A DNA stretch of 45,506 bases from Bacteroidia bacterium. GTDB lineage: Bacteria; Bacteroidota; Bacteroidia; 2-12-FULL-35-15. Under the pieces are notes generated by a model that was not told the DNA's origin, did not search any database, and saw only the letters and a list, made by a program, of their open reading frames with translations. Below, piece after piece: positions 11,625-13,790 of this stretch. Where the stretch lies: the NCBI GenBank assembly GCA_036170695.1, contig JAVHPR010000218.1:1-45506 (forward strand), given 5' to 3'. The position numbers were made by a program, and so were the translations under genes. How positions within the stretch are numbered: the stretch's first letter is position 1; every line of letters begins with the position of its first letter.

Positions 11625-13790
11625 ATGAAATATAAAAGACATACCGTTACCGCTGCATTGCCTTATGCAAACGGCCCTGTTCATATTGGTCATCTTGCAG
11701 GTTGTTACTTGCCGGCAGATATTTATGTACGTTATCTTCGTTCAAAAGGCGAAGATGTACTATTTATTTGTGGCTCGGACGAACATGGCGTACCCATTAC
11801 TATTAAAGCAAAAAAAGAGGGCATCACACCACAGCAGGTGGTTGATAAATATCATAAAATTATGGGTGATGCCTTTAATGAGTTTGGTATTTCCTTCGAT
11901 ATTTTTTCGAGGACATCCTCCAAAACACATCATGAAACGGCTTCTGAATTTTTTAAAACCTTATATGATAAAGGTGTTTTTAAGGAGGAAATAACGGAAC
12001 AATATTTTGATGAAAAGGCCAACCAGTTTTTAGCTGACCGTTATATTGTCGGAACTTGTCCAAAATGTGGTAATGATAGTGCTTACGGCGACCAATGCGA
12101 AAATTGCGGAAGTACACTTAACGCAACAGATTTAATTAATCCCAGGTCAACCTTATCAGGTGAAAAACCTGTTATGAGAAAAACAAAAAACTGGTTTTTG
12201 CCTTTGGATGCAATGCAGCCACAAATCGAAGCCTATATTGATTCTCATAAAGAGTGGAAAACGAATGTTTTCGGGCAATGCAAAAGTTGGTTAAATGCCG
12301 GACTTCAACCTCGCGCTATGACCAGAGATTTGGATTGGGGCGTTAAAGTGCCTGTTGATGGGGCTGAAGGGAAAGTTTTATACGTATGGTTTGATGCGCC
12401 TATCGGATATATTTCCGCAACGAAAGAATTATTTGAAGGAATGGAAAATGGAAAATGGAAAATGGAAAATGGAAACGCACATCTTCCATCAACCATTATA
12501 CATTCTACATCCAGAGATTGGGAGCTATATTGGAAAGATAAAGAAACAAAGCTGGTACATTTTATAGGTAAGGATAATATTGTATTTCATTGCTTAATAT
12601 TTCCTGCCATGCTGATGGCTGAGGGATCCTATATCCTGCCTGAAAATGTTCCTGCAAATGAATTTTTAAATCTCGAAGGAAATAAAATTTCCACCTCGCG
12701 CAATTGGGCTGTTTGGTTGCATGAATATTTACTGGAATTTAAAGATAAACAGGATGCGCTGCGCTATACGCTATGTGCAAATGCGCCTGAAACGAAGGAT
12801 AATGATTTTACTTGGAAAGATTTTCAGGCTAAAAACAATAATGAATTAGTTGCCATACTGGGTAATTTCATTAATCGCACCTTGGTATTGACACATAAAT
12901 ACTACAATGGAAAAGTGCCTGTTGCTGCGGAATATACAAAGTCTGACATTTTATTGCTGGAAGAAATAAGTAAATTTCCCACGAAAATTGCATCCAGTAT
13001 TGAACAATACCGTTTCCGGGAAGCTTTGGGAGAATTAATGAATCTGGCACGTTCAGGAAATAAATATCTGGCAGATAATGAACCTTGGATATTAATTAAG
13101 ACGGATGAAAAACGGGTTCAGACTATTATGAATTTATCCTTGCAAATTGTTGCAAATCTTAGCGTATTGATGGAACCATTTTTACCTTTTACATCCAAAA
13201 AATTAGGCGCAATGATCAATCTTAACAAGGATTTAAAGTGGAAGGATGCTACACGCACCGACCTACTTTTAGCAGGACATCAGATAAATCCATCGGGTTT
13301 ATTGTTTGATAAAATTGAGGATGAAATAGTAGATGAACAGGTTCTTAAATTAAAAAATTCTAAATTGATGAATGAAGCGGAATCAGGTAAATCAGAAGGA
13401 TCACTGAACGGAGCAAAAGGTGTGGTTCCAACTTCAAATGATGCTATCAACGTCCAAAAGGTAGACATTTCTTTTGAGGATTTCAATAAAATGGATATTC
13501 GTGTTGGAACTATTTTGGAAGCCGAACGTGTTCCAAAAACGGATAAATTAATGAAATTGTTAATCGATACAGGTATTGATATTCGTACTGTTGTTTCAGG
13601 AATCGCAGCGTATTATAAACCGGAAGATATCATCGGACAGAAGGTATCCATTTTAGCAAACCTTGCACCACGCAAAATTAAAAATATTGAAAGTCGTGGA
13701 ATGATTTTAATGGCGGAGAATAGTAATGGGGAGTTGTGTTTTGTCGCACCAACAAAAGATAATATGAATAATGGAGGAGTGATTAAATAA
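11625..13790 (+). CDS. metG: Methionine--tRNA ligase with a C-terminal tRNA-binding (Trbp111/EMAP-like) domain
   Basis: [14 protein letters not shown] (HIGH), zinc knuckles CPKCG...CENCG, a KISTS (KMSKS-type) loop, and C-terminal [22 protein letters not shown]. The ORF track starts at 11553, but those 24 codons translate the hairpin repeat; ATG 11625 ([17 protein letters not shown]) is the natural start. Confidence 0.93.
12441..12475 (+). repeat. Perfect heptanucleotide tandem array (atggaaa x5) inside the metG coding sequence
   Basis: Read directly: atggaaa|atggaaa|atggaaa|atggaaa|atggaaa. It is followed after 7 nt by a degenerate inverted copy at 12483-12512. Confidence 0.95.
13741..13790 (+). 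repeat. Direct repeat copy A (the last 50 nt of metG)
   Basis: ttgtcgcaccaacaaaagataatatgaataatggaggagtgattaaataa; 45/50 identical to 14560-14609. Confidence 0.9.

Follow-up and report, generated by a model that had tools for sequence, protein, structure and literature searches.

An in-frame heptanucleotide cassette in a variable loop of the methionyl-tRNA synthetase gene of uncultured Bacteroidia

Known in-frame repeats and the metG cassette

Rickettsia palindromic elements (RPEs), which Ogata et al. reportedly described in 2000, are said to lie in frame within protein-coding genes. They are mentioned in PMC1779305 and PMC10969869. Heptanucleotides are the commonest long simple sequence repeats (SSRs) in many bacteria and occur in open reading frames (ORFs) only in the stop-free orientation (PMC4679880, PMC4692102). 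The heptads named in these two papers (which cite Mrazek 2007 and Mazel 1990) include the short tandemly repeated repetitive (STRR) sequences of cyanobacteria, the Xanthomonas/Nostoc repeats GGGAATC and GGGGA(C/T)T, and TAACTGA of Beggiatoaceae, Cyanobacteria and Bacteroidetes. Contingency loci carry SSRs in ORFs or promoters, such as the heptanucleotide repeats of Haemophilus HMW1A (PMC8262952), and the repetitive extragenic palindromic (REP) sequences and bacterial interspersed mosaic elements (BIMEs) are G-rich extragenic palindromes (PMC3733652). Here we analyzed a stretch of 45,506 nucleotides from a Bacteroidia bacterium (contig JAVHPR010000218.1, hereafter the window), in which a heptanucleotide array and a degenerate inverted copy of it are found in frame within metG, the gene of methionyl-tRNA synthetase (MetRS). 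We propose, with a probability that we put at about 0.6, that the segment at positions 12432-12515 is one allele of a slippage-driven heptanucleotide and hairpin cassette, which occupies a permissive loop of MetRS, is filtered according to frame, stop codons and hydrophobicity, and is replaced wholesale between close relatives.

The locus resembles RPEs in that hairpin-capable DNA lies in frame in a conserved essential gene and is tolerated as a loop-compatible peptide. However, RPEs are dispersed families of 100-150 bp with a recognizable consensus at many loci, whereas the metG insert is a 7-nt microsatellite with a decayed mirror, and its site hosts many unrelated sequences at one codon position across the clade. 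In the sequence on hand we found no dispersed copies of the cassette, nor the defined termini and duplication by which RPEs and MITEs (miniature inverted-repeat transposable elements) are recognized. With known heptad SSRs, the locus shares tandem 7-nt units, several unit sequences per lineage, varying copy number, a mostly intergenic distribution and freedom from stops in ORFs: the metG array has at least three perfect copies, its copy number varies between relatives, and the window holds several heptad unit sequences (GTATCAG-type at 31802-31964, TATGTAA at 2420-2448). The known ones are nevertheless under-represented in coding regions, and they are not described as cassettes of aminoacyl-tRNA synthetases, with an inverted partner, or as a replacement hot spot that moves in 21-nt steps. 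A full-text search of the literature returned nothing on heptad arrays in frame in aminoacyl-tRNA synthetases, and nothing on such a hot spot. The likeness to contingency loci is a slippage-prone SSR in an ORF, with a unit that is not a multiple of three and is tied to a gene; here, in contrast, the host is an essential housekeeping gene rather than a dispensable one, only frame-preserving variants were seen without off alleles, and there is no sign of on/off switching. As for REPs and BIMEs, the alleles of two relatives (L087 and L003; L numbers denote the fetched loci, 213 in all, and P numbers the MetRS homologue proteins) carry perfect G-rich stem-loops, and at 7812-7856 the window has a similar short G+C-rich hairpin in intergenic DNA. 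The relatives' metG hairpins are, however, intragenic and in frame, and the window allele is of another type.

metG (11625-13790, forward strand, as are all features given below) encodes a protein of 721 amino acids with a C-terminal tRNA-binding domain. It matched Pfam families PF09334 (tRNA-synt_1g, E = 1e-156), PF19303 and PF01588, and the MetRS of Pyrococcus abyssi (PDB 1RQG, E = 1e-176). The start is probably the ATG at 11625 within an ORF of 11553-13790, as homologues begin with MKFKRHTV. Alignments and comparisons of homologues and DNA delimit a variable loop, flanked by the DAPIGY and HFIGKD strands in the Rossmann fold's second half; in the window it has 50 residues (12411-12560). DNA comparison with two basal alleles (L001, L002) locates in it an in-frame cassette of 84 nt, or 28 codons (12432-12515), and an HMMER gap of 18 residues relative to P. 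abyssi MetRS falls exactly there. The basal alleles read AAAGAATTA-ACGCCT-GATTGGGAA; in the window the 6-nt ACGCCT (Thr-Pro) is swapped for the 84 nt, which adds 26 codons to a loop of 24 residues. The initial annotation of this DNA had estimated an insertion of 20-25 codons relative to orthologues, and our alignments and the DNA agree with it at about 20-26 codons. No target-site duplication flanks the cassette in the DNA comparison with relatives; 6 nt were replaced instead.

The cassette opens with a left junction, TTTGAAGGA (Phe-Glu-Gly, 12432-12440), followed by a perfect (ATGGAAA)x5 array at 12441-12475, a spacer CGCAC at 12476-12480 that forms the apex of a predicted hairpin, and a degenerate inverted array of five units, ATCTTCC ATCAACC ATTATAC ATTCTAC ATCCAGA, at 12481-12515. 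The five perfect copies, already reported by the initial annotation, were found again in the sequence, by motif count and by Tandem Repeats Finder (12440-12475, period 7, 5.1 copies, 100% matches). Its inverted array was likewise reproduced, since the reverse complement of 12483-12512 splits into ATGTAGA/ATGTATA/ATGGTTG/ATGGAAG and matches at 20 of 28 positions on recounting, and its in-frame translation of the segment is correct. The 14-mer ATGGAAAATGGAAA, with at most one mismatch, has four overlapping matches in the window, all within the metG array, against 0.16 expected. A repeat finder paired arms of 31 nt at 12441-12471 and 12480-12510, 74% complementary and with 8 nt between them. The array has no stop on either strand, and it is translated across three phases with the peptide period MENGKWK; a perfect mirror would repeat ATTTTCC and encode FPFSIFH. 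Two parts of the cassette recur in relatives: a Leu-Phe following ATKE is common to nearly all long-loop alleles, and the spacer is homologous to those of related alleles, (TGA)CGCAC, TGCAACAC and TACTACAC.

Loop length, sequence classes and turnover among relatives

We surveyed the loop in 121 MetRS proteins, that of the window and the 120 homologues nearest to it (80-90% identical), which come from uncultured Bacteroidia of groundwater, soil and freshwater metagenomes. One of these 121 proteins had no findable flanking motifs; the loop had the basal length of 24 residues in 42, 25-30 residues in 26 and 32-61 residues in 52. More broadly, the DAPIGY-HFIGKD stretch usually has 24-28 residues in 80 Bacteroidota genomes, and Sphingobacteriaceae carry an unrelated, conserved insert of 45-48 residues at the same place of MetRS. 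In an alignment of 30 MetRS sequences, the sole internal indel regions were this loop and the C-terminal linker, the loop being the only one in the catalytic core; no repeats were found in the C-terminal linker among those 30. The initial annotation had held that an insertion would be contradicted if orthologues generally shared the length and sequence of the loop, but loops similar in both respects are limited to a small subset (P0015, P0032, P0035 and P0030).

The long loops belong to at least five unrelated sequence classes at one codon position, composed of repeat arrays or hairpins, and we verified the classes on DNA from ten relatives. Several class peptides have a period of 7 residues, namely MENGKWK (from ATGGAAA), NQESRIK (AAGAATC/AATCAAG), NPKSEIR (AATCCGA), QPTTNNQ (CAACCAA) and NGERRME (AATGGAG), indicating a heptanucleotide array translated in three phases. 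Another long-loop class, with the peptide ...LSPSGRAGEG..., encodes perfect G-rich, REP-like stem-loops. ATGGAAA-like left units number five in the window and in L081, four in L084 and two each in L082 and L085, with homologous right arms; those of the four relatives read ATCTTCC ATCTTCC ATCAAxC ... and follow a spacer homologous to that of the window. Other loops contain TTCGGAG units opposite AATCCTA units (L086), four AATGGAG units opposite four CTCCGAA units (L089), or four AATCAAG units with no recognizable mirror (L090). The loops of L087 and L003 hold the hairpins CCCTTCCC-AAA-GGGAAGGG and CTCTCCCC-TTCG-GGGGAGAG, with two 8-bp perfect G-rich hairpins in L087 and one in L003. Stem-loops such as the TTCG one are also present in the P0006, P0053 and P0113 types, and the G-rich inserts always adjoin a Trp codon. 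The suggestion of the initial annotation that repeats of a hairpin-forming, intergenic type reside inside metG is sound in that both heptad and G-rich hairpin types do occur in the metG of relatives. All ten DNA alleles and all 121 proteins are in frame, a count to be read with the caveat that protein databases would under-report broken genes. Judging from these comparisons, the notable feature is the site, a clade-wide, fast-evolving and tolerated hot spot, and not this single insert.

Turnover at the site was seen between close relatives. The metG genes of L088 and L089 are about 95% identical at the DNA level, with loops of 36 nt versus 87 nt that cannot be aligned, and in L089 the flanking DWEL codons are replaced too (DWEL to IWQT). 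In a bootstrapped neighbor-joining tree on 640 core columns, the window grouped with P0001 (80% support) and with P0006, P0003 and P0010 (84%), and these five members have five loop types. Pairs with differing loop classes were also found: P0072/P0113 (100%), P0032/P0104 (90%) and P0048/P0089 (100%). Relatives whose MetRS core is 13-16% diverged have the ATGGAAA cassette too, along with a spacer and a right arm homologous to those of the window, and the cassette is therefore not a recent arrival in this genome. Loops of the same class differ in steps of 7 residues (21 nt, three units), with lengths of 26/33/40, 44/51 and 40/47, and the window loop of 50 residues corresponds to the 51-residue form less one codon of spacer. 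The initial annotation had warned that slippage of a 7-nt unit would shift the frame of metG; this is so for one or two units but not for three, and it is by three units that orthologues were seen to vary. All left units are perfect in the window and L081, as are the initial four of L084, although the genes differ at about 15-20% of nucleotides, indicating continuing homogenization rather than passive inheritance. As controls, the 120 closest homologues of ribonuclease III (RNase III) are 232-259 residues long, and the products of the metG neighbors (S66, M20 and DPP-IV peptidases) are constant in length. Seeding of the arrays from flanking sequence was considered and rejected: ATGGAAA and AAGAATC each match a flank at 6 of 7 positions, and shuffled units of the same composition did equally well in 77-100% of trials.

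The repeats also bear the mark of the protein that they encode. Because a heptad array is translated in all three phases, it must be stop-free throughout, a property of 69% of heptamers on one strand and 50% on both, or 33% on both when weighted for the 37% G+C of the window. AAGAATC has a TGA on its reverse strand, and alleles of this class are without a foldable inverted arm (L090, z = +1.4). On the grand average of hydropathy (GRAVY), the left arm scores -2.03, a perfect mirror +1.04 and the observed right arms -0.3 to -1.25. This contrast between a polar left arm (MENGKWK) and a hydrophobic mirror (FPFSIFH) would explain why one arm is perfect and the other degenerate. Across the right arms of five alleles, Phe was kept in 3 of 25 cells, compared with the 24 of 35 in which His, Pro, Ser or Ile persisted (p = 2e-5, Fisher); as the cells are not phylogenetically independent, we treat this result as a pattern and not as a test.

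Related repeats in the window and at other loci

The spacer between fabF and rnc (31800-31965) is filled by an intergenic heptad hairpin, with GTATCAG-type units on the left and CTTGATA-type units on the right according to the repeat finder and the fold. Its predicted stability (-57 kcal/mol, z = -9) is much stronger than that of the metG cassette, and the similarity in layout noted by the initial annotation holds, as both elements consist of an array, a short spacer and a degenerate inverted array. The last codons and the stop of fabF (..KKYQV and stop) come from the first units of the element, and the rnc ATG lies within the last one. Such a long hairpin directly upstream of the RNase III gene is a candidate RNase III substrate; the rnc gene of E. 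coli is autoregulated via a leader hairpin. Loci of relatives were reached by an Rnc homologue search. In L213, whose RNase III is 89% identical, the fabF-rnc spacer has another heptad pair (TAGCGAT... / ...CTAATCA), and in the more distant L211 it has 9 nt and no element, which together with the window points to a persistent site with fluid sequence at a second locus. Contigs that hold close rnc homologues are in many cases no longer than 1-4 kb, as would be expected if assemblies broke at heptad repeats. Downstream of rnc, a Flavo-1 RNA (Rfam RF01705) was identified at 32855-32931, with 60.4 bits for a gathering score of 42.

The G-rich palindrome at 7812-7856, CCTCTCCCCCAGCCCCCCTCCTT-GAAA-AAGGAGAGGGGAGACC, is located between a lipoprotein-like ORF and a THUMP methyltransferase gene and is of the same kind as the in-frame metG hairpins of L087 and L003. 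The four TATGTAA copies at 2420-2448 are apparently non-coding, with a single inverted TTACATA unit some 30 nt downstream, and in L087 a different locus (1406-1440) has ACATAGT/ACATATT units followed by ATCAGGT. No second ATGGAAA array was found elsewhere in the 45-kb window. Period-7 arrays outside metG were almost absent from about 190 kb of the window and related loci, the right-arm motif was found in metG only among the 213 loci on hand, and no dispersed G-rich hairpins were found in the 22 kb of L087 besides the metG site.

In metagenomes, more than 120 loci carry (ATGGAAA)4, and composite elements of array, spacer and inverted array are common among them (e.g., L124, L129 and L169). In the groundwater runs X1-X4, the contig of pure ATGGAAA array has a depth of about 105-117, compared with 7-11 for the metG flanks, an approximately 10-fold excess that may stem from this genome or from others; several contigs with other flanks hold similar arrays. 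JGI metagenomes contain sense (ATGGAAA)4 in frame in the soluble enzymes valyl-tRNA synthetase (ValRS), leucyl-tRNA synthetase (LeuRS), RecJ and MnmA of other uncultured organisms. In ValRS, it occupies two separate loops (L104, 7434-7461 and 7595-7622). In LeuRS, it is placed between WYFLRYPS and WLPVDMYIGGAEH (L119, 6517-6544), and the same protein has further peptides resembling translated heptads (INADKNQRISADANQ). The other two are a RecJ-like protein (L115) and MnmA (L122). The antisense array, with FPFSIFH repeats, was observed in hydrophobic segments of putative membrane proteins (L162, L167 and L144). The type of host protein seems to govern which orientation of the array is tolerated.

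Directly downstream of metG, at 13876-14422, is a toxin-antitoxin pair composed of an Unstab_antitox-like protein of 85 amino acids and a ParE toxin of 99 amino acids (Pfam E = 4.5e-8); L090 has the pair too, and other relatives are without it. Elsewhere in the window, a tandem repeat of 276 nt (33919-35129, 4.4 copies, 74% matches) probably corresponds to repeated domains of a large surface protein, and a 15-nt tandem repeat, AAAATTGTTTTTTAC, is present at 20372-20416 (3.1 copies, 96% matches).

Origin of the cassette and its meaning

In our best reading, the cassette joins a still-active microsatellite, (ATGGAAA)5, through a 5-nt spacer to an inverted copy that is old and decayed. The loop tolerates nearly any length, as its range of 24-61 residues shows. 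Heptad arrays in it would lengthen and shorten by replication slippage and, because metG is essential, only in-frame outcomes would survive, which fits the steps of 7 residues or 21 nt. The inverted arm may stem from strand-switch synthesis templated by a hairpin, or a two-armed heptad hairpin resembling the intergenic ones may have been inserted. The survivors would then be filtered at the protein level, as suggested by the pattern of stop-free units, a perfect polar left arm and a mirror arm that sheds Phe; as Phe codons are lost from the mirror arm, the hairpin decays. Between close relatives, whole cassettes are replaced, perhaps through new events at the site or through short tracts of recombination. 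The insert is probably without function, a piece of tolerated repeat DNA.

A number of observations weigh against this proposal. The ATGGAAA/CATCTTC cassette occurs in four lineages that do not group on the core-protein tree, so that pure in situ evolution is insufficient without recombination or many losses. Flank identity gives no sign of recombination: in 50-codon bins beside the loop, the window is no closer in nucleotides to the other ATGGAAA-class alleles than to the remaining ones, a result that neither proves an exchange nor rules it out. The shared Leu-Phe left junction and the location of the G-rich hairpins at a Trp codon hint at a site-specific process, and tolerance alone may not explain the hot spot, since the more flexible C-terminal linker has no repeats. 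That the loop is at the protein surface is a presumption from its tolerance of indels, and an AlphaFold2 model based on 30 close homologues had a mean predicted local distance difference test (pLDDT) score of 42 and was unusable. Finally, Logan contigs (k = 31) from the four groundwater runs break inside the array, and ongoing slippage is putative.

It is possible, though we find it doubtful, that the cassette is a mobile palindromic element, RPE- or MITE-like, inserted in frame, with different families hitting one preferred target. Its layout recurs in the intergenic element at 31800-31965 and in many of the metagenome (ATGGAAA)4 loci, the G-rich hairpins of metG have an intergenic counterpart at 7812-7856, identical cassette classes are found in lineages that do not group together, the G-rich inserts always stand beside the same Trp codon, and in the source metagenomes the depth of the pure-array k-mers exceeds that of the flanks about 10-fold. 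The landing of an intergenic repeat type in metG, as the initial annotation pictured it, is nevertheless supported only in part, given a cassette that is shared by diverged relatives, is present as a single copy in 45 kb and has a right arm confined to metG, in sequence whose period-7 arrays are almost solely those of the metG site. Moreover, there is no target-site duplication, no conserved terminus and no transposase linked to the element, unit sequences vary between alleles, and host codons (6 nt here, the DWEL codons as well in L089) were replaced and not interrupted. A more speculative idea, to which we give little weight, is that the MetRS loop codon is a truly targeted diversification site, at which a site-specific process repeatedly installs heptad arrays, inverted copies and G-rich hairpins. 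Candidates for this process are synthesis that is hairpin-primed or switches template, and a REP-type transposase favoring a target beside the Trp codon; the process would also act in ValRS, at two sites, and in LeuRS of other uncultured bacteria. If true, it would be a previously undescribed way of generating repeat DNA inside essential genes, and the loop variation might be selected, for example for escape from a MetRS-binding toxin or a phage factor.

The hairpin might instead be functional as mRNA or DNA, serving as a processing site for RNase III or another enzyme, as a translational pause between the Rossmann halves or as an autoregulatory operator. The cassette does have a predicted hairpin of modest stability, in line with the folding proposed in the initial annotation, at -20.1 kcal/mol as RNA (z = -2.6 to -2.7, with 2-4 of 200 shuffles as good) and -10.8 kcal/mol as DNA (z = -2.3), and five of nine relatives' alleles also fold better than shuffles (z = -3.2 for L081, -2.6 for L084, -2.5 for L082, -4.7 for L089 and, weakly, -1.8 for L086). 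L089 keeps four GGAG/CUCC helices in register with differing 3-nt interhelix parts. However, L085 (z = +0.8) and L090 do not have the fold, 42 of the 121 homologues have no insert at all, and the predicted structure is a ladder of helices of 3-6 bp separated by many symmetric internal loops. Rfam has no family at the metG cassette site, and decay of the right arm tracks amino-acid properties rather than base pairing; the left arms are invariant and offer no covariation. We thus consider a functional hairpin at metG quite unlikely. A 7-nt unit placed in an ORF is how a frameshift switch is classically built; slippage by one or two units would inactivate metG and yield slow-growing or dormant cells, and metG lesions raise antibiotic tolerance in some bacteria. 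Such a contingency switch is very improbable, given that MetRS is normally essential and single-copy, so that the off state would be lethal unless reverted, that all alleles on hand are in frame (with the same caveat on databases), that five copies make a short array with a modest slippage rate, and that many relatives have no array. An assembly or binning artefact, with the repeat collapsed, expanded or chimerically joined, would account for Logan contigs that break in the array and in some cases run into unrelated flanks. We regard it as practically negligible, the frame being intact and both flanks conserved MetRS, the 35-nt array being shorter than a typical read, and the array with its homologous right arm being present in four other, independent assemblies (L081, L082/L083, L084 and L085, from JGI, ENA and Logan); the initial annotation had raised this concern as well.

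Selfish palindromes in frame in Rickettsia, heptad microsatellites in cyanobacteria, Xanthomonas and Beggiatoaceae, and contingency repeats that shift the reading frame are already known. The metG locus unites these three ideas within an essential aminoacyl-tRNA synthetase, and at one of its codon positions unrelated repeats and hairpins replace each other in genomes that are otherwise about 95% identical. The filter of selection is unusually readable there, in the steps of three units, the stop-free units and the contrast between a perfect polar arm and a decaying Phe-bearing mirror. In practice, the array interrupts assemblies, and MetRS is of variable length in alignments and in marker-gene phylogenies of uncultured Bacteroidia. 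The locus is also a natural system in which to measure the load of slippage in an essential gene, the creation of new loop sequence and the preference of bacteria for 7-nt repeats.

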